This document shows positions 4,974 through 56,945 of a stretch of DNA of 64,000 nucleotides, piece by piece; the stretch's first letter is position 1, and each line of letters begins with the position of its first letter. The notes under the pieces are model-generated. The model made no database searches and had not been told where the DNA came from. It worked only from the letters and a program-made list of their open reading frames with translations. Origin of the DNA: a virus. Taxonomy: Duplodnaviria; Heunggongvirae; Uroviricota; Caudoviricetes; Ackermannviridae. The stretch covers positions 40,721 through 104,720 of IMG/VR virus record IMGVR_UViG_2974499353_000001; one strand, given 5' to 3'. The translations under genes were made by a program, and so were the position numbers.

Positions 4974-5122
4974 TTTTTGAAATTGATTTACTCTCCTATT
5001 TTGTGATGTGTGACGAATTAAAGGCACACGGCTATAGCATATTTGAAATCAGTGAATCGATGCCGTGGCATCTTGATTTGCTTACCGAGACACTGAAAAT
5101 TAGATTGTCTAAGAAATCTTCC

Positions 5123-5150
5123 AACCCCACGTAATGTGGGGTTTTCTTTG
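5123..5150 (+). terminator. Rho-independent terminator (AACCCCACGTAATGTGGGGTT followed by a T run)
   Basis: GC-rich perfect hairpin followed by TTTCTTTG. Confidence 0.7.
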
Positions 5151-5394
5151 CTTACCTGTTTTATAGGTTAAGACAGGAACGTTTAACCTTAAATTGCTAT
5201 AACACCGTTGTTGCTGAAGTAAGTGTTGTGTAATTGGGGTTTGAATTTGTTTTGAAGCAAAAATAATCCTTTTCTACGCATGTTCTGAGGTGTACAGTAT
5301 TTTCCTCGCCTTTATGCCTCCATGGCATTGGAATGGGACTGCCTGTCAAGGCGGTGTTACGAGCTTCAGCGAGTAGGAACGAAAAGAATAAAGG

Positions 5395-5421
5395 TTGAAC
5401 GGAAGCAGAGCTTCCTATAAT
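5395..5421 (+). promoter_or_regulatory. Sigma70-like promoter upstream of gene 5 (TTGAAC, about 15-nt spacer, TATAAT)
   Basis: Hexamers read directly. The spacer is short, so confidence is moderate. Confidence 0.4.
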
Positions 5422-5450
5422 ATATTATTCGACAGATTTCAAATCCCCGC

Positions 5451-5458
5451 CATAAATA
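5451..5458 (+). promoter_or_regulatory. T4-type late promoter-like box CATAAATA, about 22 nt upstream of the gp5 ATG
   Basis: Near match to the T4 late consensus TATAAATA at the expected distance. Confidence 0.45.
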
Positions 5459-5479
5459 TCACATGATTCTAATTGACTA

Positions 5480-7105
5480 ATGGGTTTCAATATGTTAGAC
5501 AACTTGCGTTGGTTTTACGGGCGCGTTGAAGACGTGAATGATCCCGATCAAAACGGGCGCGTCGCAGTACGCATCTATGGGGTACACACGGAGGATACCA
5601 CTCTTCTGCCTACCGAATTATTGCCTTGGGGTAAAATGCTTATGCCAGCATCTAACGCCTCCTCGGCAGGTTTAGGCTGGTCTCCGACGGGTATCACTGT
5701 CGGCTCTGACGTTATGGGGTTTGCTTTGGATGAAGCATATCAGAACATCCGTATTGCATGGGTATGGCCAGCAGCAACACCAACAGATGGGTCAGATACA
5801 AACCCATTGGCGCTGGGTCAGGTCGTTCAATCTATAGAAAGACAGAAGTATAATGCCGTCGAGAATGTTCCTGTTAAGATTGAGGATGAACCACAACCGG
5901 ATCCACAACCACCAGTAGACGGATATGATCCTGAGAAGTGGATGACCGTGGCTCGTGGGGAATTGGGCGTCAAAGAATATTCTGGTAAGTTCAATAACAA
6001 CCCAAGGATATTGGAATATCATAAGACAACTTCCCTGGGGGCGTCAGAAGATGAAGTTAGTTGGTGTGCGTCGTTCGTTGGGTGGGTCCTGATACAGGCC
6101 GGATATACATCAACACGTTCTGCTTTGGCTCGTTCATATCTACAATGGGGGTCTCCTCTGTCAGAACCACGTTACGGCGCTGTTGTAGTGTTCCGGCGCG
6201 GGAACAACCCGACATTCGGTCACGTTGCATTCGTTCAGAAATTTGACGCCAACTACGTTTGGTGTATCGGGGGAAACCAATCCGATTCTGTGAAGGTGAG
6301 CCGTTTTAGCCGCTCATCCGTGTTGGGTTATCGTTGGCCAGGTCCAGCAACTACAGCTTCAGCAGCTCCGGCACAACAAAACGGTAAATGGTCTGAACCT
6401 ATTCCAGATCGTACCCCGAAAGTCCAAGAAACACCGCCTCCTTCTGGTCGTGTTCAGGATATTGACAACACAGGAGAGGTATCGGTTCCTTCGGCTGGAG
6501 GGTCTCGTTATCCATACAACAATGTTATGGCTTCTCGAGCTGGGCATATTATGGAGGTCGATGACACTCCAGGCGGGGAACGTTTGCATTGGATGCACTC
6601 TTCTGGGTCTTACAAGCAAATGCTTCCTGACGGTGATGTTGTTAATAAATCAGTCAAAGATCATTATGACCTGACGATGTTCGACAAACGTTATTATGTG
6701 GGGGGTGATCATAACCTGACAATTGGTGGGACTGAAGTACAGCGCAAGAAAGGAGAAGTTTACCACTTACACTCTTCTAACTATTCCAATGTGGTCGCTG
6801 GAACAGCGTTGATGAAATTTTCCCAATTGGCTGAGATACAGGCACAGAACGTGTTGCGTCTCATCTGTGAAATGTTGGAAGTTTCCAATACTTTGAAAGT
6901 GCCTAAAATACTGGCTAGTGAAATAGTTTGTGATAAGTTGTCGGTGGCGCAGACTATTGAAGGCAACATCAAATATGCTGAAGGCGCTGGCCGCGCCGCC
7001 TCACGTGCGGGGGCAACTCCTGTAACAACTACAGGCCCAGGTCCAATTGATATAAAACCGGAGTTAGAGGATAACGGCGGCAATTTTGGTGGTAAAGGCG
7101 CATGA
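5480..7105 (+). CDS. 5: Baseplate central hub/spike protein gp5 homolog. Carries a CHAP peptidoglycan-hydrolase domain in place of the T4 lysozyme domain.
   Basis: N-terminal OB domain similar to T4 gp5 (NLRWFYGRVEDVNDPDQNGRVAVRIYGVHTED versus T4 NLNWFVGVVEDVMDPSLIGRVRVRVHGLHSPD). The middle region has CHAP motifs SWCASFVGW (catalytic Cys) and GHVAFV (catalytic His). The C-terminus is helical rather than a long beta-helix. Confidence 0.85.
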   Translation: MGFNMLDNLRWFYGRVEDVNDPDQNGRVAVRIYGVHTEDTTLLPTELLPWGKMLMPASNASSAGLGWSPTGITVGSDVMGFALDEAYQNIRIAWVWPAATPTDGSDTNPLALGQVVQSIERQKYNAVENVPVKIEDEPQPDPQPPVDGYDPEKWMTVARGELGVKEYSGKFNNNPRILEYHKTTSLGASEDEVSWCASFVGWVLIQAGYTSTRSALARSYLQWGSPLSEPRYGAVVVFRRGNNPTFGHVAFVQKFDANYVWCIGGNQSDSVKVSRFSRSSVLGYRWPGPATTASAAPAQQNGKWSEPIPDRTPKVQETPPPSGRVQDIDNTGEVSVPSAGGSRYPYNNVMASRAGHIMEVDDTPGGERLHWMHSSGSYKQMLPDGDVVNKSVKDHYDLTMFDKRYYVGGDHNLTIGGTEVQRKKGEVYHLHSSNYSNVVAGTALMKFSQLAEIQAQNVLRLICEMLEVSNTLKVPKILASEIVCDKLSVAQTIEGNIKYAEGAGRAASRAGATPVTTTGPGPIDIKPELEDNGGNFGGKGA

Positions 7106-8624: not shown

Positions 8625-8668
8625 ATGAATTACTGGGAAGTATAGGCGGAAAGGTTTCAAAAGTAAAG
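8625..8668 (-). promoter_or_regulatory. Early promoter cassette (hairpin-CTTTAC, 18-nt spacer, TATACT) driving the 8354 gene
   Basis: Minus-strand reading: GGGGCTTTACTTTTGAAACCTTTCCGCC TATACT. Same architecture as the other cassettes. Confidence 0.5.
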
Positions 8669-8687
8669 CCCCTCAATGAGGGGCTTT
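8665..8687. terminator. Bidirectional hairpin AAAGCCCCTCAATGAGGGGCTTT
   Basis: Perfect GC-rich stem flanked by A and T runs. Confidence 0.6.
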
Positions 8688-15767: not shown

Positions 15768-15830
15768 AACTATAATAGTGCATGATTATTGAAGAGTAAA
15801 GTCTTTTTCAATAAATTTTTAAATTATTTT
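15768..15830 (-). promoter_or_regulatory. Early promoter cassette (UP-like AT repeats, CTTTAC, TCTTCAATAA spacer, TATTAT)
   Basis: Minus-strand reading: GACTTTACTCTTCAATAATCATGCAC TATTAT. Shares the TTCAATAA spacer motif with the other cassettes. Confidence 0.5.
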
Positions 15831-15844
15831 TGAAGTATTTTAAA

Positions 15845-15868
15845 AGGCCTCGTAGAATGAGGCCTAGA
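15845..15868 (-). terminator. Terminator AAGGCCTCGTAGAATGAGGCCT
   Basis: Hairpin plus T run after the 15894 gene. Confidence 0.55.
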
Positions 15869-18198: not shown

Positions 18199-18254
18199 GA
18201 TATTTACCCCTAAAAAGAAAATCCCCCTGTATTTAGGGGGATTGTATTTTATAA

Positions 18255-18852: not shown

Positions 18853-21288
18853 TCAGATCTTAATCTGAAGATTGCCGCCCAGGGACTGCTCATACTCACT
18901 GTATGCGCTTTCCCCGTTGCTTGCCGCCCATTCGTCGGACTGCTGGGCACGAGCCAGAGTCATCAAGTTTGGCTCTGTCGGGTTATATCCCTTCGATTTC
19001 GCATCGTTGTATACCGTTTGCAGGTACTGGTTAGCACGGTTGATCTGATCTTTGAACTCACGATATGCGCCTTCGGTTGTGTTGCGACGGAAGGTGATAT
19101 CCCAGTCCACATTCAAGGTTTGGCCATCGCGGCTGGCGTAGATCTGCCAATCCAGGTCGCGGCCTTTCGGGGCGTTGTCTCGGATGGAACCAGCGTATGT
19201 CGCGAGGTCAACGCCAGTTTTCTTCGCAGTACTAGACTGCTCTTTCTCAAGGCGTTCCGTTTCTTTGCCAAGGATGTTCAGCATGGTCTCTGTTGCACGA
19301 CGGTCACCCATGTTGTGGCCACGCCATAGAACTTCACCCTTGTCATCCACGTGGATATCATCGAGGAAGACTTGCATCGGGTTGTAGTTCTCGCTCGTAA
19401 GGGTCTGCATGTTACGGGCAACCATTTGCATCGTCTCCGACCAACTGTCGAGGGTCTCCTGAACAAATTCCTTAGTCAACGGGAGTTCGTACGTCTTCGG
19501 ATTGTTCAGGGTACGACCTTTGTTAGAGACCATAGGCGTGATCGCCACTTTGCCTTTGTCGTAATAATATGTCACGTTAGTCGTCATCACAGCGCCGTCA
19601 TACTTCCCGCCTTTCGGGAAATTGATACCAGACCAAGTGATGGACATGCCATTGACTGTCTCACCAAACACCATGGCGTTGCGTGGTATCTTCAGGGTTC
19701 CAGAGTTGACCAGATTAGCGCCCTGAGCATTCAGGTCGATAGAACCATAGATTGCCCCGCTACGGTCTTTCAGCATCAGAGTCTTGTCACCTTTCTCTGG
19801 GATGATTTCCAGGAGATGCTTGCCGCGCAGAGGCTCTTTGTTGAGTTCCAGCAGAGCAGTCTTTCCTGGTTTCACGCGATTCAGGAGAGCGTCGGACACT
19901 TTCAGAGTCCAGTTGGCTGTTTCAACATAACCCCAACCCTGAGAATGACGGATGGCCTTGATAGGATATGGGGCGCTCATTGGCACCGCATTGATTTCCC
20001 ATTCACCGCGATACTGATGTTCGGCAACGTAGGTGACCGTTTCCATGATTTCGTTGGCCACGCGACGGGCATCACCAGAGATGACACCAGGCTGGGATTC
20101 GATTTCAGAGAACACACTGTATTTCAGATTCTTACCGTCGACTGAATCGAAGCTAACAATTATCACCAGACCGCCTTTGGTTTGATAACGCGCCTGTCCT
20201 ATCTTCTTAATGCTTTCTCCTGGTAGATAGCTTGCTTTCTGGTCGATATTGGTGTCAATGATACCCAGAACACGGGCAACGAAACCGCTGTCGATCAGTT
20301 GCTGGATGCTGTTGGCACCAACCGTTGTGTTGGAGTCGGCGGTATTATTCGCGGAGATAACGTCTTCCACATTCAAATTAAACAATTGTTTTCCGGCGAA
20401 ATCCAAAGCAATAAATTCATATTTCATGCCGCTGCGGGTACTCGTCGTGTTGGTTTTGATCTCCCCAGTATATTGCCCTGGATTTGTCTTTTGCATGAAA
20501 TTCGTAATCGCAGCTGAAGGGTGTTTCATACCAGAAATGATTTTAGCCGCCTTTGGATCAGTGAAAGACACCACAGGTTTGCGCCCGTCCATAACCGAGA
20601 TATTGTTCCCAGAAACAGAAATGCTGAGGTTTTCCATTTCAGAACGGAAGTCAACACCAACAACAATGTTTGAGTTGGAATTGTTCCCAACACCCACACC
20701 AGTGGCGTTGTTCTGAACTGGAACGTCGCCGACTTTATCTGGATCATCCCAGGTGATACCCTGCATCTTCGGACCGTCAAAGACCTGAGCCGGATCCTTG
20801 CCTTTCTTGACAAGCCAAACATAGCCGCGATCAGGGACAGGAGCGTAGGTCAGGTCCATGACGTTTAGCTTTTGTTTTAGGCCGGACTGGCGGATTATCT
20901 TTGGAATGAGTGTCATTCCGCGATCGAGCGCTTTCTTGGAGAAGTTCACGGCGAACCCGTCGATGGTCTTACCCAGAGGAGTGACCAAGAATTGCTTTGT
21001 CGCTTCTATCATAGAGGCGATGACACGCATTGGATTCTTGAATCTAGCGATCATGTCAGGGTAGGTGCTGCCGCGTTTCTGACCGATGAATACCTGGCGG
21101 ACATTCTTACCCAGACCTTGCGGGGTATAGAACTGGATGCGGTATTCCTTTTCATCTTCGTCGATGAATGTGAAGAACACATCACCTGCGTTCTTCTTAC
21201 CCATAGTCAGTTCATACGGGGCTGAGTTGAACGCTTCGTCTAATTGGTTTCTTTCCTGCATGAACTGGAGGAAACTTGGCTTTGACAT
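18853..21288 (-). CDS. Large orphan protein (811 aa), possibly virion-associated
   Basis: Long clean ORF with SD AGGAGAT. Central Ser/Asn/Gly-rich low-complexity region (GVGVGNNSNSNIVVG). Weak N-terminal resemblance to T4 Alt, which I could not support. Confidence 0.65.
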   Translation of the reverse strand: MSKPSFLQFMQERNQLDEAFNSAPYELTMGKKNAGDVFFTFIDEDEKEYRIQFYTPQGLGKNVRQVFIGQKRGSTYPDMIARFKNPMRVIASMIEATKQFLVTPLGKTIDGFAVNFSKKALDRGMTLIPKIIRQSGLKQKLNVMDLTYAPVPDRGYVWLVKKGKDPAQVFDGPKMQGITWDDPDKVGDVPVQNNATGVGVGNNSNSNIVVGVDFRSEMENLSISVSGNNISVMDGRKPVVSFTDPKAAKIISGMKHPSAAITNFMQKTNPGQYTGEIKTNTTSTRSGMKYEFIALDFAGKQLFNLNVEDVISANNTADSNTTVGANSIQQLIDSGFVARVLGIIDTNIDQKASYLPGESIKKIGQARYQTKGGLVIIVSFDSVDGKNLKYSVFSEIESQPGVISGDARRVANEIMETVTYVAEHQYRGEWEINAVPMSAPYPIKAIRHSQGWGYVETANWTLKVSDALLNRVKPGKTALLELNKEPLRGKHLLEIIPEKGDKTLMLKDRSGAIYGSIDLNAQGANLVNSGTLKIPRNAMVFGETVNGMSITWSGINFPKGGKYDGAVMTTNVTYYYDKGKVAITPMVSNKGRTLNNPKTYELPLTKEFVQETLDSWSETMQMVARNMQTLTSENYNPMQVFLDDIHVDDKGEVLWRGHNMGDRRATETMLNILGKETERLEKEQSSTAKKTGVDLATYAGSIRDNAPKGRDLDWQIYASRDGQTLNVDWDITFRRNTTEGAYREFKDQINRANQYLQTVYNDAKSKGYNPTEPNLMTLARAQQSDEWAASNGESAYSEYEQSLGGNLQIKI

Positions 21289-21365: not shown

Positions 21366-21641
21366 TTAACGACGGAAAGGACGGTTAGCGTTTTCGCGGT
21401 TAGACCAATTCTTTTCAGCCTGGGTAAGCGCCGCAGGACTCCATTCGCGTTCCCACTCTTTGTCGACTTCGGCTTGGTTGGCGGGTTCAACAATTTCAAC
21501 GCCAGGGAAATCACGTGCCATAATTTCACGTAATTGTTCAGAAGGAGCAGTTTGAGCGTGTACTAATTCTTCGCCGTTATAAACCTTGGCCATGAGCCAT
21601 TTACTGCCGTAACGAATATATGCGTCGAGGATGATTTTCAT
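21366..21641 (-). CDS. Hypothetical small protein (about 91 aa)
   Basis: Start ATG preceded by the conserved leader TTGAAAAGCAGGAACTATATT. Early cassette upstream. Confidence 0.5.
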   Translation of the reverse strand: MKIILDAYIRYGSKWLMAKVYNGEELVHAQTAPSEQLREIMARDFPGVEIVEPANQAEVDKEWEREWSPAALTQAEKNWSNRENANRPFRR

Positions 21642-21689
21642 AATATAGTTCCTGCTTTTCAAGTTGGTGTCGTACTGCTTATGTTTAGA

Positions 21690-21755
21690 ATTATACGGCA
21701 GTTATTGAAGAAGTAAAGGGGCGTTTGCCCCTTTTATTGAATTATTTTAAGGTGT
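21690..21755 (-). promoter_or_regulatory. Early promoter cassette (hairpin GGGGCAAACGCCCC, CTTTAC, TTCTTCAATAA, TATAAT)
   Basis: The 16-mer TTATTGAAGAAGTAAA is identical to the one at about 56914..56929. Confidence 0.55.
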
Positions 21756-22385
21756 GGGGTTTACCACAGGGATATGAGACCTGATTTCAAAAACGATGTC
21801 TTTCAGTTGAGGCTTCCAACCGTCTACCAGGCGGGACAACGCATTGGAACCAGGATAGACAATAATGATATCGCTTCCGGTTACGTTATGCTGGGGGAAT
21901 TGTGACATGTATTGCTCCATCGTCACACCTGCGTCAATTAATACAGGACCAACATCAGAAGACGCATATGTCGCACCCAGACCGTCAACACCCCAGGCCA
22001 GAATTCCATAGTCGGGAATATTGGCTTCGGATGTTATGGTGTATCCAAAGATACGATTCAACGCTGAGAAATCATATACATTGTGAGCACTATCATATGT
22101 CAAATAACCTTTCACCAACATATCAGCAAAGATTGCATCTGTATCACCAGCGGCTAGGGTCGGAACGGTAAAGAGTAGTTCACCTGCTGGAGGAGTAGGA
22201 TAAGTGCTGAGAGCGTAAAGGCACCATGCGTCTATACATTTCTTGATAAACGCTTCGGGTGCGACATAATCCGCAAGGCGCATTGTACCGGAATATTCTG
22301 AAGTAATGATCCCTTCCTTCGCGCCCTGAATAGCCAGAAACACCATTATGTGTTCATATCCGGTCTGAGATGGAGTGATATTCAT
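21747..22385 (-). CDS. Hypothetical protein (212 aa), translationally coupled to the upstream lytic transglycosylase gene
   Basis: ATGA overlap with the upstream gene. Confidence 0.5.
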   Translation of the reverse strand: MNITPSQTGYEHIMVFLAIQGAKEGIITSEYSGTMRLADYVAPEAFIKKCIDAWCLYALSTYPTPPAGELLFTVPTLAAGDTDAIFADMLVKGYLTYDSAHNVYDFSALNRIFGYTITSEANIPDYGILAWGVDGLGATYASSDVGPVLIDAGVTMEQYMSQFPQHNVTGSDIIIVYPGSNALSRLVDGWKPQLKDIVFEIRSHIPVVNPTP

Positions 22386-23002
22386 TATCTGGTCCTCTTG
22401 AGTTTCTCAATCGTGCGCTTATTCATGGCGATCACTCCTGGGTCGACCTTTGGGTTTATTGCCATGCTTTTGAAAGACACACATCGTTGAAGATATTTAG
22501 CCTTCTTCACGACGTCGGCTGCATAAGAATTGGATTTCTGGTTACGATTGAACCCAGCATTGTAAGAGGAAAGGGATTTGCGGATGTTTTGGTTGTGATA
22601 TTCTAGCCAGAAATTCATTTCATCAAGGGCAGCATTGGCAGCATATTCTTGATTGACCAGTAATTTGATCGCGACATTGGCGTAACACTTCTGTGTTTTG
22701 CAGCCCTCCCGTTTCCCGACGGTTTGGACTCGATTTTGGAATGCTCCCATATTAGCCGATTTCAGGTTATTACGCATGGATACTACATCTTCTCCTGCGC
22801 GGCTTTCCCTCCATGATATTGCGGCTAGGGTGAAACCAAGGTCTTGCTGTTTGCCCACGTGATAGGCAGTGGCCATGGTTGAAAGTTGCTGATCAGAAAA
22901 TTCGTAATCACATTGGGTGGTACTTTGGGAAGCGTGCACACTCCCGCTGGCAATGGTAAAGGTCACGGACAAGGCCATGGCCTTCAACGTTGTCATCGTC
23001 AT
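22385..23002 (-). CDS. Secreted soluble lytic transglycosylase (SLT domain) with an N-terminal signal peptide
   Basis: Signal peptide MTMTTLKAMALSVTFTIASGSVHA/S. SLT motifs AISWRESRAG (the ES motif), GAFQ and SYNAGF. Confidence 0.7.
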   Translation of the reverse strand: MTMTTLKAMALSVTFTIASGSVHASQSTTQCDYEFSDQQLSTMATAYHVGKQQDLGFTLAAISWRESRAGEDVVSMRNNLKSANMGAFQNRVQTVGKREGCKTQKCYANVAIKLLVNQEYAANAALDEMNFWLEYHNQNIRKSLSSYNAGFNRNQKSNSYAADVVKKAKYLQRCVSFKSMAINPKVDPGVIAMNKRTIEKLKRTR

Positions 23003-23068
23003 GATGGCGTTCCTTATGTGTTTGTCGACTTGCAGCTCGATTGAGCCTCCTGACAGGGTTAAAAGATA

Positions 23069-23094
23069 AAGGGCACGAGATATTTAGTGCCCTT
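23069..23094. terminator. Hairpin AAGGGCACGAGATATTTAGTGCCCTT
   Basis: Perfect 8-bp stem in an intergenic region. Confidence 0.5.
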
Positions 23095-23098
23095 CACC

Positions 23099-26149: not shown

Positions 26150-27265
26150 TTATGCATCCAATGTGTTCAGGCGTTGTTGGGCAGCATTATAGAATTGTTC
26201 TGCTAATTTGCAAACATTTTCAGGGCGCTGGATATTATTGGCGGCGCGGATATCTTTCTTCAGGACTTCCACAGCATCAGTCGCCACCATCTCTTCAGTG
26301 ACTTCTACCTTCTCGGAAGCAACAGTAATCGTCCGATCGATGAAGTTGTAATCGATGCATTTACAGCGCTTCAATGCGTCACAGAACTTTTCATAATGCT
26401 TGGCATTGTCACGGTTCTGTACAATCACCTTAACGATTTGCCCTTCAATACCCAAAACATTGTTTAACCAATCGGGGTCGATCCAATTACCTTCAGTATC
26501 AGAAGACATTTGGGTGTAGTCGTATTCCACGAACCGGAACAACGTTTGTTGTTCGTTGTTGGGGATAAACAATTCCCCGCCATTCATGTCGTCTACATAG
26601 AATCCTCGGTTCGTCCCGTCTTTGTGGTCTTCCCAGGTAAGGTGATAAGGAGTCCCAATATACTGAATGTTACCTTCCATCGAACGGGTATGGAAATGTC
26701 CGGTATCCACGCGCTCGAATTTCGAAAGGAGCGCCACGTCGATCTGACCTTTATCACATACAGAGGACTGGTACATTTTGAACCCTGCCAACTCCAGATG
26801 CGCAAAACAGTACTTGGCGTCTGTATCTTGTATCGCTTTAATGGACGCATCATAGTTCTCTTTGTTAATCCACGGCAGTAGGAGGGTCTTGACACCTTCA
26901 ATCATTACTTCAGTTGGTTCGCTGTAATAATGATAAACATCCGGTGCCAATTCATTAAGATAAGAAGGCCAGTTAATGCGATTGGACTCTTCTAACGTGA
27001 TATCATGGTTGCCGACGATGCCATTCCATTTAATACCTGCTTTGCGCAGCGCTGGCGTCAATTCATCTTTCAACCAATCTTTATCGCGCCCATACATGAA
27101 TTTGCGAACATCAAACGTATCACCAAATTGCCACACTTCTTTAATATCGGCGTCAACCAATTCTGGAATAAAATAATTGATGAGATAATTCTTTATGAAT
27201 TCTCGAACGTAACGGGAACCATTACGGCTCCCGATATGTAAATCGCCTATTTTAGCAATCGCCAT
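26150..27265 (-). CDS. 47: Recombination endonuclease subunit gp47 (SbcD/Mre11-like nuclease)
   Basis: Calcineurin-like phosphoesterase motifs GDLHIG, GDTFD, GNHD. Size 371 aa. Confidence 0.85.
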   Translation of the reverse strand: MAIAKIGDLHIGSRNGSRYVREFIKNYLINYFIPELVDADIKEVWQFGDTFDVRKFMYGRDKDWLKDELTPALRKAGIKWNGIVGNHDITLEESNRINWPSYLNELAPDVYHYYSEPTEVMIEGVKTLLLPWINKENYDASIKAIQDTDAKYCFAHLELAGFKMYQSSVCDKGQIDVALLSKFERVDTGHFHTRSMEGNIQYIGTPYHLTWEDHKDGTNRGFYVDDMNGGELFIPNNEQQTLFRFVEYDYTQMSSDTEGNWIDPDWLNNVLGIEGQIVKVIVQNRDNAKHYEKFCDALKRCKCIDYNFIDRTITVASEKVEVTEEMVATDAVEVLKKDIRAANNIQRPENVCKLAEQFYNAAQQRLNTLDA

Positions 27266-31514: not shown

Positions 31515-31597
31515 TCGGATTACTCCAGTTAGTTGTTTACAATGTTTCACTACAAGAGGACTACAGCTCACCTAACAAATATTATTGAATAAAGCGT

Positions 31598-34189: not shown

Positions 34190-34215
34190 AAAGGCGGTTT
34201 AATAATAACCGCCCT
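34190..34215 (-). terminator. Terminator AAAGGCGGTTTAATAATAACCGCCCT
   Basis: Hairpin plus T run after the 34228 gene. Confidence 0.55.
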
Positions 34216-34227
34216 AATGTTATTGAA

Positions 34228-36091: not shown

Positions 36092-36170
36092 GGTGATTCT
36101 CCTTATTTCATTGGATAAAATGATAGTCGGCTCACCATGTTGAGTAAAGGGTTTCAATAAACTATCGTAT

Positions 36171-37566: not shown

Positions 37567-37625
37567 GGTATAGTTCCTGCATTTCAAATAGACGGGGTAA
37601 TCATACCCCGCCATAATTTATAGAA

Positions 37626-37894: not shown

Positions 37895-37960
37895 AACCCC
37901 ACGTTAGCCAGTTATTGAATAATACGGCAAATGTTTATTCAAGTAAAGCCTTTGAAAGTA
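37895..37960 (-). promoter_or_regulatory. Terminator hairpin TCCCCAATAATTATTGGGGA plus an early promoter (CTTTAC, TTGAATAAA spacer, TATTAT)
   Basis: Minus-strand reading: GCTTTACTTGAATAAACATTTGCCG TATTAT. Confidence 0.5.
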
Positions 37961-37996
37961 AAAATCCCCAATAATTATTGGGGATTTCATGGATTA

Positions 37997-38351: not shown

Positions 38352-40568
38352 TTAGATTTTGACTTCTTTTTCAGCCAGTTCGGCAGTGACGGTGTATTTC
38401 ACCCCATCAACTTCCACATCCATAGTGGATTCTTCCAAATCCAGGTCGGTAAACCAACCATGGCCTGCAACAATCCCATAAACTACCTTGGACAGCGTTT
38501 TGTTCAGGGCGCGGACTTCGTTAATGGCCGCTTTTGCTGCGTCTCCGATCCAGCTTTCAATCAGCTTTTTCTGAGTCTCTTCCGGTACGCTGGTGATCAT
38601 CGGCGATTTAACAAATGCATTGTATTCAGCCAGGGCATTAGCGATCAGCTGATCAGCGACATTCAGTTTTTTACCGTCCGTCTGTTTTTTGATAACAGAC
38701 GCGATGCTCGGCAGTGAAGATGCGCCTTTGATTTTCACATTCAATTCACGACTCATATAGACATCGGTTGATTCTACAGAAGAAGTCTTCGGTGAAAATC
38801 CATAGTCGCGAATTCCGTTTGCTGACAGGAAATCAGCTGCTTCTTTGCCATATTTTGAAGCCAGACCAGTAGCGTTGCCTTTACCAACCAGTTCATCACG
38901 GTAGAATTTCAGAACTTTCTGTTTTGCCTTCAATGCTTCACGGCGCACATTGTCTGCAAAGAATTCAGCAGCACTGATATTCTTTGTCATGGCGCGGTTA
39001 ACCATTGGGACACTTTCCAGATTTACAATGAAGACTTCCGGTCCACCAAACACATGAACACCCATGGCAGTCAAATCCTGTGCCACCTTAGCCCGAACAA
39101 TCGGAGAATCTGCAGTGATAGGCATTGTTTTCAGGTTGATGATACCATCCTTGACAATGGTGTAATTGCGATAACGCCAGGTCCCCAGCTCTTCAGGAAG
39201 TTCATATTTCTTCTGTACAAACTCAGGCACAACAACCGTTCCGTGTTGAACTGTCTGCACACTGATGTTAGGACGTTCTGAATTGTAGACCAAATTGCTG
39301 ATCGGGACAATCCCTTTATCATCTGCTGGATTGAATTCGGGGGTCCAATCTTCGTGCTCGGCCAGTTTGAGCGCCAGGGCTTTACGCTCTTCTTTAGAAG
39401 TCGCATTCGCAATCTCTTCGGCCAACTTGTCTTCGGTGTCATCAACTTTCTGTACAGTACCGCGCCCAATGCTCTTGTAAGAGAATAGCGGATGCTTGGT
39501 GACGATAGAGACATCGGCTTCGGCCAGGTAGGTCAAAACATCAACAATGGTCGTTGCATCTTCAGCCGGAACCATATTATAATCGATGCCATCAACTCCT
39601 CGCAGAGATTCGTCTACGATAGCCTGAGTCAGATCGACTTTGATGTTGGAATAGTCCTGCTTGGTGAAACAGTTGCTGTACTGTTTGATGAAGCGGACGT
39701 CACCCGTCTTCTTCAGCGCGGCCCAGACCAGATCGGCGTCCATGGTATACACGCCGTAAAATGCCAGCACGTATGCCGCTTGGATGTCTGCCAGATTATC
39801 CAGCTGGTCGATCATGTTGGGGTTTACAACCCACAGCTGAGAAACGCTTTCAGGGATGCTGACGTGGCCAATAGGGTGCTCTTCATCAGGATGCACAGCT
39901 AAAACAGTCGCCACGCCATTTTCAACATAAATGGCATGGGTATAAACCAGAGGAACATCGACTACAACTTTCGGTGAAGAAGTTTTCAGCACGTTTTCCA
40001 ATTCGGTCTGATATTCATTCTGGCCTTCGGCGAATACGTGGGTCGCACCAGAACGTTCTGCCATTAGCGCCAGCAGTTCGCGATTACAATACCAACCGTA
40101 TTCGATGAAGGTAATGTTATCAAACGCTTTGGGCAGTACTTCAGCGGCATCCAGGATTTCATTAGAACGCCAGCAGTTGTCATATCCGTCGGTCATGAAT
40201 GCCAGGTTGTTAACATAACCAGGTTTATTCAGGCTAATGGCAGTTTCCGCAGCCAGTTTCAGCGGCTCAACAAAACCAGTACAACCAGAAGGCTTCAGGA
40301 AACGGTCAATTAGATTATTGATCTCACTGAGGTCGGTTGCACTGTTAATCTGACGTCCGGCAAATACCGTTCCGAAATCACCGCGAGATGAAAAGTAAAG
40401 GATGCTCACAGTATCTTCCGGTTTCACCAGGGAAGGCAGGTTCTCCTTCAGATGCTTACGGACTTCTGGAAGTGAACGATACATGGAACCGGAGATATCC
40501 ACAACGATTACATGGTTAGACGGCGCGACGGTCGCAACCGCATTCTTAAATGTTAATGATTCAATCAT
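38352..40568 (-). CDS. Large von Willebrand factor A (vWA) domain protein (about 738 aa)
   Basis: MIDAS motif VIVVDISGSMYRS, with downstream TDG and D residues. Start at MIESL overlaps the upstream small gene (ATGATTGA). The C-terminal 500 aa are unassigned. Confidence 0.7.
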   Translation of the reverse strand: MIESLTFKNAVATVAPSNHVIVVDISGSMYRSLPEVRKHLKENLPSLVKPEDTVSILYFSSRGDFGTVFAGRQINSATDLSEINNLIDRFLKPSGCTGFVEPLKLAAETAISLNKPGYVNNLAFMTDGYDNCWRSNEILDAAEVLPKAFDNITFIEYGWYCNRELLALMAERSGATHVFAEGQNEYQTELENVLKTSSPKVVVDVPLVYTHAIYVENGVATVLAVHPDEEHPIGHVSIPESVSQLWVVNPNMIDQLDNLADIQAAYVLAFYGVYTMDADLVWAALKKTGDVRFIKQYSNCFTKQDYSNIKVDLTQAIVDESLRGVDGIDYNMVPAEDATTIVDVLTYLAEADVSIVTKHPLFSYKSIGRGTVQKVDDTEDKLAEEIANATSKEERKALALKLAEHEDWTPEFNPADDKGIVPISNLVYNSERPNISVQTVQHGTVVVPEFVQKKYELPEELGTWRYRNYTIVKDGIINLKTMPITADSPIVRAKVAQDLTAMGVHVFGGPEVFIVNLESVPMVNRAMTKNISAAEFFADNVRREALKAKQKVLKFYRDELVGKGNATGLASKYGKEAADFLSANGIRDYGFSPKTSSVESTDVYMSRELNVKIKGASSLPSIASVIKKQTDGKKLNVADQLIANALAEYNAFVKSPMITSVPEETQKKLIESWIGDAAKAAINEVRALNKTLSKVVYGIVAGHGWFTDLDLEESTMDVEVDGVKYTVTAELAEKEVKI

Positions 40569-44685: not shown

Positions 44686-44727
44686 TAAAGTGAGGTCAAT
44701 ATACGCTGAAAAGATTTATTGAAAAGT

Positions 44728-46358: not shown

Positions 46359-46406
46359 AAACAGAGGCCATTATAGCCTCTGTTGTTTAGTGAATAACGG
46401 ATTATA

Positions 46407-47286: not shown

Positions 47287-47751
47287 TTATTCGCTTTTTG
47301 CCCGACTTGGGCGAATAGTGTATTTTGGAACCAATTTCCACTCAGAAACTTGGTCATGTTTTACAACTTTGATCCGAGACATGTCAGCCACTTCGGTTAT
47401 TTGTTCCGGATGCAAGATCTTAACCATATTCCATTGCTCCAGAAGCCGTATAATCCGATTCATACGCAGGACATCTTCACGCGTAAAGCCGTTGTAGTGC
47501 CCATCTAGCATGAACAAATGCTTGAAATGCACGATGTGATATCTGCCAAATTTATGCAGGATATGGCACGTTTGATACAAGGTGTTAGGCTCTTGACGAG
47601 TGTTAACCCCTATCCGACTCAGCGTTTCCTTGATACCCAGGAAAATCCCTGGTTTGTCTTGGTTCAATTGAACTTCAACCATACAGTCAACAATGCTGGC
47701 CTCATCGTTGACAGCTGAAAGTTTTAAGATGTCCAGCGTATTACGCGCCAT
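47287..47751 (-). CDS. regA: Translational repressor RegA
   Basis: LYQTCHILHKFGRYHIVHFKHLFMLDG and EWKLVPKYTI are similar to T4 RegA. Confidence 0.85.
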   Translation of the reverse strand: MARNTLDILKLSAVNDEASIVDCMVEVQLNQDKPGIFLGIKETLSRIGVNTRQEPNTLYQTCHILHKFGRYHIVHFKHLFMLDGHYNGFTREDVLRMNRIIRLLEQWNMVKILHPEQITEVADMSRIKVVKHDQVSEWKLVPKYTIRPSRAKSE

Positions 47752-49245: not shown

Positions 49246-49275
49246 ACCGATAATAAAGCGCCGAATCGTTATTGA

Positions 49276-49959
49276 TTAATCCAGCTGCATGCCGACGTAA
49301 TAGTTGATGGTGCCGTCTGCGGATTGGAAGTTAACCAGTTGCATTTCGGCACAGGCGCGGATCACGTAGTTGCCTTCGATCATTTTCAGGTTGACCACAT
49401 CAACAGGCATAGCAAAATCACCCAGAGTTGTTTCACCCAACTCAACAGTGTAATCGTTGGAATTGTCGATGGTCGTGGTCGTGCCCACCAGACGAGTTTT
49501 ACCGCCGCTGGCAACCAGACGTACAGTTTTGTGACCCAGAGTAGAACAGGCGCGAGTCAGCTCTTTCATTTTTTCAGGAGTGACCGTTGCTTCAAATTCT
49601 ACAGACGGAAGATCGATGCTGTCTGCCGGAACGACAGTCAGTTCTTTAGCGGAACGCCAGAATTGCAGTTGGGAGTTTTCACCTTTCAGCAAAATGTGGT
49701 CTTCCGACATTTCAATTTTACCGCCTTTAAAACTCGGCAGACGCTGGATTGCCAGCAATTTGGTCAGATCCAGAATCGGGAATTCGAACGGGAAGTCTTC
49801 GTCAATGTCGGCAATAGCGATAACTGTACTGGAATCGTTAACAGTGCGCAACTTTTTACCAGGTGCCAGAACGATAGAGGGGCAGATGGTTTCAAAGTTA
49901 GCCAGCAGTTGTAAAGTGCGTTCGGAGAGAGTGATCTCTTGCATTAGTTGTATCCTCAA
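49276..49959 (-). CDS. 45: Sliding clamp gp45
   Basis: Size 227 aa. Position upstream of 44 and 62. N-terminus similar to T4 gp45 (LSERTLQLLANFETICPSIVLAPGKKL versus T4 LSKDTTALLKNFATINSGIMLKSGQFI). Confidence 0.8.
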   Translation of the reverse strand: MRIQLMQEITLSERTLQLLANFETICPSIVLAPGKKLRTVNDSSTVIAIADIDEDFPFEFPILDLTKLLAIQRLPSFKGGKIEMSEDHILLKGENSQLQFWRSAKELTVVPADSIDLPSVEFEATVTPEKMKELTRACSTLGHKTVRLVASGGKTRLVGTTTTIDNSNDYTVELGETTLGDFAMPVDVVNLKMIEGNYVIRACAEMQLVNFQSADGTINYYVGMQLD

Positions 49960-50283
49960 AATATAGTGGGGTTCAAGTCATATTTGACGCAAATTAGTAT
50001 CGCGTGTTTGTAGTTATAGAACAAGTGATAAATTGCCCTACGTGCGATAAATAAATGCCTGACGGCATTTATAATATTCTGTTTTAATAAAACCTTTCTT
50101 TATCAGTCTACTCGCTTCGCTCGTGATAATACTCGTTGCTCGCAAAGCTCACAACTCGTATATTACGCACGGATTGTTCAACAAGAAAGCGATTTTTATT
50201 CAACAATTAAAATATTTTATTTGGTCTAAACAGAGCATGACATTATTATGTAGTCAAGTTTGCTAACACGTGAGAAATAATAT
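49960..50283. promoter_or_regulatory. AT-rich divergent control region with iteron-like repeats (TACTCGCTTCGCTCG, TACTCGTTGCTCGC) and a hairpin (AAATGCCTGACGGCATTT)
   Basis: Read directly. Possible promoter cluster for gene 45 and/or a replication origin. Confidence 0.35.
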
Positions 50284-56385: not shown

Positions 56386-56850
56386 TTACAGATCTTGGCA
56401 CTGATCGCAATATTCGTCGTATGTGAATGTCTCATCACACAGGCCGTCACGCATCATATCGGCCTTGGCTTCGCCAAACATTTTCAGGGTGATAACGTTG
56501 CCGTCTAAATCTTTACGAAGTTCGTTCGGCTTGGTTTCTATGAAGTCGAACACCACAAAGAACCCTTCGGTGACATATTTGATGGTTTTGTTGCTCAGCT
56601 TACGGATGCCACCGTTCTTTTTGAAGATAGAGGTGCGGAGGTTTTCGAATTCAGCCAGGTTGTCATCGTGATTCTTGATAGCGTTCAGCATTGCGTCAAG
56701 GTCGATTTCAGGACGAAGCATTTTGACCTGATCTTCGCGGTCATAAGAAGTGAAAGATTCTATGTTGGTGATGCCCAGAGCGTTTTTAACAAACGCGTCA
56801 AATTTGGTGAAATTGTTGAATGCCCAGACGGAGATTTTTACGGTTGTCAT
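56386..56850 (-). CDS. Hypothetical protein (154 aa)
   Basis: Conserved leader CTGAAATGAAGGAACTACATC-ATG. Early cassette upstream. Confidence 0.5.
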   Translation of the reverse strand: MTTVKISVWAFNNFTKFDAFVKNALGITNIESFTSYDREDQVKMLRPEIDLDAMLNAIKNHDDNLAEFENLRTSIFKKNGGIRKLSNKTIKYVTEGFFVVFDFIETKPNELRKDLDGNVITLKMFGEAKADMMRDGLCDETFTYDEYCDQCQDL

Positions 56851-56894: not shown

Positions 56895-56945
56895 AATGAA
56901 GTATACGGGGTTTATTGAAGAAGTAAACCCCGTTTATTGAATAAA
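56895..56945 (-). promoter_or_regulatory. Early promoter cassette (GGGGTTTACTTCTTCAATAAACCCCG TATACT)
   Basis: A hairpin encloses the -35 box. Shares the 16-mer TTATTGAAGAAGTAAA with the cassette at 21703..21718. Confidence 0.55.

Follow-up and report, generated by a model that had tools for sequence, protein, structure and literature searches.

Composite cassettes, probably of the promoter-early stem-loop type, precede small orphan genes in Salmonella phage S118

Salmonella phage S118 (NC_049437.1; family Ackermannviridae, genus Kuttervirus, a distant relative of T4) carries, between its genes orf91 and orf90, an intergenic element on the minus strand that recurs in related form ahead of other small genes, and the question raised by this locus is what kind of regulatory unit the element represents. 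The DNA analyzed is a 64-kb stretch, here called the window, which is identical to S118 genome positions 40721..104720; a 4-kb probe taken from it is 100% identical to the Salmonella phages S115, S118, and rabagast. The window contains blocks of replication, nucleotide-metabolism, and head genes, nearly all of them on the minus strand, and is 93% coding, with 4469 nt (7.0%) of intergenic DNA. The elements under study lie within the replication and nucleotide-metabolism block. The original prediction, made from the letters of the DNA alone, described at least five near-identical early-expression cassettes, each composed of a terminator hairpin, a -35 box, a fixed spacer, a -10 box, and a conserved leader. 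Our answer is that these cassettes are probably composite units of transcription and translation of the promoter-early stem-loop (PeSL) type, each containing a promoter for the sigma-70 RNA polymerase of the host and providing portable homology for gene exchange. The observations on which this answer is based are the motif statistics, the comparative footprint, the stabilities of the hairpins, and the swaps of neighboring genes.

Each cassette is named after the position of its first -35 base in the window (P8667, P15800, P21717, P36148, P37947, and P56927). The five minus-strand loci first described do exist at about the positions given for them, and P36148 is new. The focal cassette, P21717, spans 21642..21746 on the minus strand in the interval between orf91 and orf90. 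In the direction of transcription, it consists of a copy of TTCAATAA (21741..21734), a hairpin (21734..21715), the -35 TTTACT (21717..21712), a second copy of TTCAATAA within the spacer (21709..21702), the -10 TATAAT (21695..21690), and an unstructured leader (CATAAGCAGTACGACACC...) that ends in the ribosome site AGGAACTATATT and the ATG at 21641. This cassette is conserved in phages CBA120 and Menlow. The -35 box had first been read as CTTTAC, a register that we reject; CTTTAC agrees with the consensus TTGACA at one of six positions, compared to four of six for TTTACT one base downstream, and the annotation of phage LIMEstone1 reads GTTTAC.

The promoter core is captured by the composite pattern TTTACT-N15-17-TATNNT, which has six matches in the window versus 0.42 ± 0.61 in dinucleotide shuffles of the window (n = 100). 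This is a 14-fold over-representation, and none of the 100 shuffles reaches six. The matches are the five loci noted earlier plus the additional site at 36120..36148, and every one lies in intergenic DNA on the gene (minus) strand, with none inside coding sequence, an outcome that answers the concern that the motif might be just as common there. Since only 7% of the window is non-coding, the chance of six intergenic placements alone is about 1e-7. Relaxing the pattern adds only one match, TTTACC..TAGAAT at 38880, which is on the plus strand and antisense within a coding sequence; the whole S118 genome contains nine matches to the composite pattern. Because the heptamer CTTTACT alone is not enriched (10 copies versus 5.8 expected), the significance is limited to the composite pattern. 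The consensus of the cassettes is TTTACT, a spacer of 16–17 nt, TAT(A/T/C)(A/C)T, a leader of 30–75 nt, and AGGAAcTAtATc-ATG. A generic scan of 60 kb for sigma-70 promoters and terminators was also tried and set aside, as it cannot single out the cassette family with 47–57 promoter-like matches per 20 kb versus 35–39 expected.

The degree of resemblance among the cassettes is lower than first described. Only P21717 and P56927 reach 76% identity over 88 nt, and the remaining pairs are 53–70% identical over that length, versus a random background of 55 ± 4% (maximum 66%), so the description of the loci as near-identical elements of 60 to 110 bp is overstated and applies to this one pair only. 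The 16-mer TTATTGAAGAAGTAAA said to be shared by these two cassettes is indeed identical between them, at 21702..21717 and 56912..56927, positions that correct the earlier coordinates by 1 nt and 2 nt, respectively. A third copy of this 16-mer lies outside the window (genome 144017..144032), and P21717 and P56927 are each 72–75% identical to the cassette-like site that contains it (genome 144032). Judged by their sequences, P21717 and P56927 are true paralogues, and in this sense the unit is duplicated, as had been proposed.

The comparative footprint was examined in orthologous 40-kb regions of CBA120 (Kuttervirus), Menlow (Taipeivirus), XF4 (Limestonevirus), and EspM4VN (Agtrevirus). Five of the six cassettes fall within this span, and each is found at the orthologous position in every one of the four phages, giving 25 orthologous sites including those of S118. 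TTTACT is kept at all 25, and the length of the spacer is constant at 16–17. In pairwise comparison, the -35 has a mean identity of 1.00 and the -10 one of 0.95; the means are lower in the spacer (0.69) and in the 20 nt on the upstream (0.76) and downstream (0.80) sides. Invariant hexamers held at a fixed distance by a spacer of drifting sequence fit the footprint that would be expected of a sigma-70 promoter. P56927 was compared separately, between S118 and phages Vi01, Ds16CZ, IME250, T765, and KWBSE43-6. In these six phages, representing three genera, a 60-nt core of the cassette is invariant, whereas the DNA of the upstream gene plus cassette matches at only about 80%.

A stable hairpin is found upstream in five of the six cassettes (-12 to -17 kcal/mol, z -3.9 to -5.1 by RNA folding), and its placement relative to the promoter differs from one cassette to the next. 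P8667 (8588..8693, minus strand), located between a glutaredoxin gene and orf75, has a hairpin at 8687..8665 (-16.6 kcal/mol), the -35 TTTACT at 8667..8662, the -10 TATACT at 8644..8639, and the ribosome site AGGAACTATATC; the end of the stem lies within the -35, which is overlapped by the 3′ arm and T-tract of the hairpin. The stem of P21717 (-13.6 kcal/mol, z -5.1) likewise ends within the -35, and in both of these cassettes the terminator T-tract (TTTACTTTT and TTTACTTCTT, respectively) doubles as the -35. P56927 (56851..56953, minus strand; orf141/orf140), the paralogue of P21717, has its -35 at 56927..56922, its -10 (TATACT) at 56905..56900, and copies of TTCAATAA at 56941..56934 and 56919..56912. 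Its hairpin (56933..56905, -14.0 kcal/mol) encloses the -35 and the spacer in the stem. P37947 (37866..37996, minus strand), between the acyl carrier protein gene and orf115, has a hairpin at 37988..37961 (-17.3 kcal/mol; tail TTTTTACTTT) that stands 14 nt upstream of the -35 TTTACT (37947..37942), and its -10 TATTAT (37924..37919) is directly followed by TTCAATAA (37919..37912). In P15800 (15695..15893, minus strand; orf84/orf83), a terminator hairpin at 15865..15845 (-12.1 kcal/mol) and an AT-rich region precede the -35 TTTACT (15800..15795) and the -10 TATTAT (15777..15772), the hairpin being about 45 nt from the -35; some 170 nt of this cassette are nearly invariant across the five genomes. 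P36148 (36092..36170, minus strand; orf111/orf110) contains TTATTGAA upstream of the -35 TTTACT (36148..36143) and the -10 TATCAT (36125..36120) and has no significant fold by RNA folding (z -1.1). The description of the hairpin as abutting or enclosing the -35 is therefore accurate for P8667 and P21717 (abutting) and P56927 (enclosing) and inaccurate for P37947 and P15800, where the hairpin is distant, and for P36148, where there is none. AT-rich DNA stands out upstream of the -35 at P15800, P56927, genome site 144032, and, beyond the hairpin, P21717; at P8667 and P37947 the hairpin fills this space and no such region is apparent.

A GC-rich stem followed by a T/U-tract is present at four cassettes: 8687..8665 (TTTACTTTT), 21734..21715 (TTTACTTCTT), 37988..37961 (TTTTTACTTT), and 15865..15845 (TTTTAAAA). 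The stems are retained across genera through loop and compensatory changes, for example GCCCCTC/GAGGGGC in S118 and GCCCCC/GGGGGC in Menlow. The hairpin is lost, with the promoter kept, at P8667 in XF4 and at P37947 in Menlow; the loss in XF4 adjoins an inserted homing-endonuclease gene. These losses indicate that hairpin and promoter are separable modules and that the hairpin is not the obligatory part it was first taken to be. The broader description of a modular regulatory unit, in which an intrinsic-terminator-like hairpin is combined with a sigma-70-type promoter, a leader, and a strong ribosome site, is upheld.

In four of the five cassettes for which flanking genes were compared by BLAST, a gene swap or indel occurs exactly at the 3′ edge. 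Upstream of P56927, the orf141 protein is 79–99% identical among the compared phages; downstream, the genes of Ds16CZ and IME250 have no BLASTP match to S118 orf140 or to each other, and those of Vi01 and KWBSE43-6 are only 38% and 28% identical to orf140, respectively. At P21717, the upstream orf91 is 82–84% identical and orf90 is replaced by unrelated open reading frames (ORFs) in XF4 and EspM4VN. At P8667, only S118 and CBA120 have orf75; in Menlow, XF4, and EspM4VN, the homologue of orf74 comes directly after the cassette. At P37947, EspM4VN has an additional ORF between the cassette and the orf115 homologue. Genes also appear in other slots. A homologue of orf140 (window 56386..56850), which in S118 sits at P56927, is encoded at 20805-21116 of the EspM4VN sequence (49% amino acid identity, E = 2e-24), second among the ORFs that follow the P21717 orthologue, and this displacement can be taken as direct evidence, from comparison of the two genomes, that cassette-associated genes move between slots. 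The P21717 orthologue of LIMEstone1 is itself a mosaic that joins a -10, discriminator, and ribosome site of the P56927 type to a leader core of the P21717 type. The cassettes thus appear to mark sites of small-gene exchange between related phages.

Composite terminator/promoter cassettes named PeSLs have been described in T4-like phages (PMC2839356, PMC4122927). By definition, a PeSL joins AT-rich DNA to a sigma-70-like promoter that is immediately preceded by a stem-loop, and its 3′ end carries the Shine-Dalgarno sequence and start codon of the next gene; the promoters of the T4/PST pair have the consensus TTTACW-N17-TAYWAT, and PeSLs have been proposed to mediate modular gene shuffling (PMC4122927). 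PeSL hallmarks also include demonstrated activity as promoter and terminator and mini-circles that arise when cassettes recombine. The S118 cassettes have the same order of parts, with the AT-rich region clear at some of them, and the same promoter consensus as those of T4/PST, and they too are intergenic, adjoin small ORFans, and show replacements or indels at the cassette edge. They differ in belonging to a member of the Ackermannviridae rather than to a T4-like phage, and in including one cassette without a stem-loop (P36148) and one whose stem-loop encloses the -35 (P56927). Moreover, unlike the PeSLs of hyperplastic regions, the S118 cassettes are situated between core replication and nucleotide-metabolism genes, yet always beside small ORFs of unknown function. 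The proteins encoded by the six promoter-proximal genes are 77–229 amino acids long and gave no Pfam match and only PHROG matches of "unknown function," and the original description of the downstream genes as small orphans is borne out; the host-takeover role presumed for them, like early timing, is conjectural. One partial exception in annotation concerns P36148, for which the adjoining downstream genes orf110 and orf109 are annotated as i-spanin and Rz-like spanin in relatives.

The early promoters of T4 combine UP, -35, TGn, and -10 elements (PMC2988021). The S118 cassettes resemble them in their host sigma-70 type, in a (G)TTTAC -35 region, and, in several cases, in AT-rich upstream DNA. 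Phages of this kind are not known to have an Alt or Mod system. Individual orthologues of the cassettes have been annotated before. Table S2 of the phiSboM-AG3 study lists nine putative early promoters, including Porf138 (TTttacttcttcaataactcacgTATAAT) and Porf100 (PMC3121705); we find that Porf100 and Porf138, together with Torf088 and Torf141 from its terminators, are orthologues of S118 elements. In the record of LIMEstone1 (HE600015), the P37947 orthologue is a "putative early promoter" (GTTTAC/TATTAT), and an overlapping terminator is annotated at each of the P37947, P15800, and P21717 orthologues. These annotations are partly in another register (TTGAAA/ATAAT for AG3 Porf100; CTT/TACGAC for the LIMEstone1 "middle" promoters) and are piecemeal, with no single family described and the orthologues of P8667 and P36148 missed. 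The 2012 genus paper on Viunalikevirus in Archives of Virology reportedly mentions "conserved regulatory sequences." The CBA120 paper found only eight sigma-70-like promoters and regarded early promoters as not identifiable by informatics (PMC3184105), and a 2024 review of the family Ackermannviridae makes no mention of promoters or transcription. Given that PeSLs are already known and that orthologues have been annotated piecemeal, what is new here is the phage family and not the kind of element.

The cassettes could work at two levels. In RNA, the GC-rich hairpin with its T-rich tail would end incoming transcription from the gene upstream. In DNA, the -35 would be supplied by the T-tract or by the bases that immediately follow it, in the form of TTTACT, which is the lac-type TTTACA variant of TTGACA, and this hexamer, together with TAT(A/T/C)(A/C)T 16–17 bp downstream, would be read by the sigma-70 RNA polymerase of the host with no phage factor, so that the promoter should fire upon entry of the DNA into the cell. 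Transcription is predicted to start about 7 nt past the -10 and to yield a leader of approximately 30–75 nt, either unstructured and A/C-rich or with a 5′ stem-loop, which would end in the optimal ribosome site AGGAAcTAtATc-ATG. The outcome would be strong, autonomous expression of the small next gene, often as a single-gene unit with its own terminator. In this scheme, we infer sigma-70 dependence, start sites, early timing, and promoter strength. As the cassettes resemble one another, we propose that they also offer portable homology, by which genes could be exchanged, inserted, and lost at the 3′ edge.

Several points weigh against this interpretation. In a generic sigma-70 scan, the cassette sites score 9–10 of 12, in the company of many chance matches. 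None of the six cassettes has the TGn extended -10 of the T4 early promoters, the preceding bases being ccg, ccc, cac, or gac. The hairpin of P56927 ends in a poor U-tail (ATACTTCATT) and P36148 has no hairpin at all. The spacers of P15800 and P56927, which contain TTCAATAA, are as conserved as the hexamers and so hint at an additional factor, and LIMEstone1 labels the P15800 and P21717 orthologues as "putative middle promoter" (HE600015). We found no start-site, RNA-seq, or expression data in the literature for any phage of the Ackermannviridae. Finally, up to half of the DNA thymidines of the relative ViI are reported to be hypermodified (PMC8989533), so that recognition of these T-rich hexamers by unmodified host polymerase is an assumption.

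The alternative that survives best, although we consider it unlikely, is that the cassettes, or those with TTCAATAA, are not plain host-only early promoters and are controlled by a phage protein that binds TTCAATAA/TTATTGAA. It is motivated by the conserved TTCAATAA box in P21717, P15800, and P56927. The motif occurs 17 times in the window against 4.25 expected, with 11 copies intergenic, and it lies within the spacer of three of the six cassettes. The original prediction had treated it as the fixed spacer of the cassettes; its presence in those three is confirmed, but as a defining element it is rejected, since the other three lack it in the spacer, its distance to the -10 is variable, and it behaves as an independent intergenic motif. 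In the orthologues of P21717 and P15800, the spacer TTCAATA is kept while other spacers drift, and in all five genomes the -35 of P15800 is bracketed by the inverted repeat TTATTGAA-N13-TTCAATAA. Beyond the cassettes, the distance from TCAATAA to the -10 has, in the whole genome, a single sharp peak at 12 nt (8 sites versus 0.1 expected), and all eight sites are intergenic and on the gene strand. When the box is relaxed to TC(A/T)AT(A/C)N, CBA120, Menlow, XF4, and EspM4VN also show the 12-nt peak, exclusively on the gene strand, and at orthologous sites the box, the -10, and the N12 between them are retained as the intervening sequence changes. TCWATAA-N12-TATNAT (class B) thus appears to form a second, promoter-like class apart from the TTTACT cassettes (class A). 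The protein would activate class B, where the box is 12 bp from the -10, and repress or modulate class A, where the box is within the spacer or flanks the -35. In T4, the MotA box (a/t)(a/t)(a/t)TGCTT(t/c)A of middle promoters likewise lies 12 ± 1 bp from the -10 and replaces the -35 (PMC2988021), and the "middle" label given to two orthologues in the LIMEstone1 record would agree with such control. However, the box-to--10 distance in class A varies from 6 to 10 nt, or the box lies upstream of or around the -35, so class A is not in the class B register; three cassettes have no box in the spacer; and no activator is needed by class A, whose -35 is competent. Homologues of MotA or AsiA have been reported to be lacking in ViI-like phages (PMC3184105), and no MotA-like Pfam domain was found among eight candidate regulators of the phage.

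The class B sites are related to the cassettes but distinct from them. They have neither a -35 at 17 bp nor TGn. They share with T4 middle promoters the geometry of box and -10 without a -35 at 17 bp, and with the PmSLs of phage nt-1 a frequent connection to a stem-loop, and they differ from T4 middle promoters in a box sequence unrelated to TGCTT. Class A cassettes do not fit T4 middle promoters, having a -35 and no TGCTT at the MotA-box position. In the window, class B is represented on the minus strand at 34202..34226 (TCAATAA-N12-TATTAT; a terminator hairpin at 34215..34191 has the -10 in its loop), at 37600..37624 (TCTATAA-N12-TATGAT, ahead of denV; the hairpin loop of GGCGGGG...CCCCGTC contains the -10), and at 44698..44722 (TCAATAA-N12-TATATT, with no hairpin around the -10), and by a variant at 49250..49275 (minus strand; TCAATAA-N13-TATTAT) between gp45-like and gp44-like genes. 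At 34202..34226 the box, N12 spacing, -10, and hairpin are kept in four genera with changes in the stem. Elsewhere in the S118 genome, class B sites are found at 26468, 30872, 134072, 135453, 147955, 152572, and 155313, and at 147955, 152572, and 155313 the -10 again falls in a terminator-hairpin loop. As a class, these sites lie upstream of denV, clamp-loader genes, a tRNA cluster, and other genes. Nothing relevant to TTCAATAA was found in the literature.

It is possible, although we advance this only tentatively, that the T(T)C(A/T)ATAA box 12 bp upstream of a sigma-70 -10 is an undescribed -30 box of the Ackermannviridae, that class B represents middle-type promoters served by a phage factor, that the same box in and around the early cassettes allows this factor to turn the early promoters off as it turns the middle promoters on, and that the next -10 is set in a terminator loop. 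Such a factor may be a functional analogue of T4 MotA/AsiA that is unrelated in sequence. The box in the spacers of P21717, P56927, and P15800, or present as an inverted repeat around the -35, would be where early-off, middle-on switching by the candidate factor takes place.

A second alternative, which we regard as still less probable than control by a DNA-binding phage protein, holds that the leader and ribosome-site part of the cassette (…GAAAWGMAGGAACTAYATYATG) is mainly a target of translational control, for instance by a RegA-like repressor. All six cassettes end in a Shine-Dalgarno sequence and start codon at the 3′ end, with the near-consensus AGGAACTAYATYATG in four. The motif ACTAYAYYATG is concentrated at the cassette genes, occurring in four of the six first genes behind cassettes versus 4 of the 82 other genes. 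The window encodes a RegA-family translational regulator at 47287..47751 (Pfam PF01818, E = 4e-35), and T4 RegA binds A/U-rich initiation regions of early mRNAs. However, the 88 gene starts in the window, taken column by column, have the ribosome-site motif of the cassettes as their plain consensus, and translational control would not compete with the promoter interpretation. The leaders themselves are diverse. That of P21717 is unstructured (-2.0 kcal/mol, z +1.0), and the idea that the P21717 and P56927 leaders are structured RNAs was rejected when they folded no better than shuffles; the leaders of P15800 and P37947 start with a 5′ stem-loop, and that of P8667 with a small, weak one (z -0.9). 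A shared leader sequence, CATAAGCAG, had been attributed to the family as a whole and is present in two of the six cassettes only. As the whole window gave no match in Rfam, the cassette leaders do not represent a known RNA family.

That the cassettes are only terminators with strong ribosome sites, their -35 and -10 likeness arising from T-tracts and AT-rich DNA and their downstream genes being expressed by read-through, is very improbable, for although strong hairpins with T-rich tails are present in four cassettes, CTTTACT is not over-represented by itself, and generic promoter scans are noisy, the composite pattern is enriched 14-fold and exclusively intergenic, the conserved -10 boxes belong to no terminator, and TTTACT and the -10 are invariant at 16–17 bp even without a hairpin (P36148, genome site 144032, and the losses in XF4 and Menlow).

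Interpretation of the cassettes as PeSL-type units would have several implications. Transcriptional control in the Ackermannviridae is essentially uncharted despite the wide use of these phages in biocontrol and therapy, and recognition of the PeSL type yields a consistent set of candidate host-dependent promoters and extends the PeSL shuffling idea beyond the T4-like phages. The cassettes pinpoint sites of accessory-gene exchange and could serve as candidate strong expression slots for phage engineering. The TTCAATAA box at the distance of the MotA box may point to a new early-to-middle switch.

Other observations concern terminators and intergenic elements of the same window. At 34191..34215, 37600..37624, 18220..18243, 23070..23095, and 46360..46384, a terminator hairpin holds in its loop the -10 of the promoter that follows, in the form of TATTAT, TATGAT, TATAAT, or the late-type CTAAATA. 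A transcript initiated inside the loop would include the 3′ arm only and would therefore escape termination. One short sequence could in this way both stop incoming transcripts and start new ones without the 5′ arm of the hairpin, and the placement of the next -10 (class B or CTAAATA late type) in a terminator loop may be a design rule in which 25–35 nt stop and start transcripts. CTAAATA as such is not over-represented in the window (9 copies versus 6.5 expected); seven of the nine copies (3117, 18230, 18826, 23081, 52181, 60713, and 61931, minus strand) are intergenic, on the gene strand, and 20–40 nt before start codons. This placement is that expected of gp55-type late promoters (T4: TATAAATA), and S118 encodes gp55-, gp33-, and gp45-like proteins.

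Two non-coding stretches of unusual length, 4974..5491 (518 nt) and 49945..50283 (339 nt), are both located where gene direction changes, and may represent an origin or divergent control region; the latter contains repeated GAGCGA/GCGAGC-like motifs, and neither has a match in Rfam. An element spanning some 50 nt ahead of the HU-like gene (31540..31592) is conserved in all genera and contains TTCAATAA followed by the direct repeat TGTAGT-N6-TGTAGT, with no recognizable -10 at 12 nt. The gene orf92 (22385..23002) has been labelled "RegB" in rabagast, LIMEstone1, and XF4; this label appears unsupported, because the protein has only a weak Pfam match, to SLT lytic transglycosylase (E = 7.6e-5). 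The leader of approximately 60 nt upstream of orf92 (CCCTGTCAGGAGGCTCAATCGAGCTGCAAGTCGACAAACACATAAGGAACGCCATCATG, 23003..23060) is almost invariant in four genera, a conservation far above that of the adjacent coding DNA.

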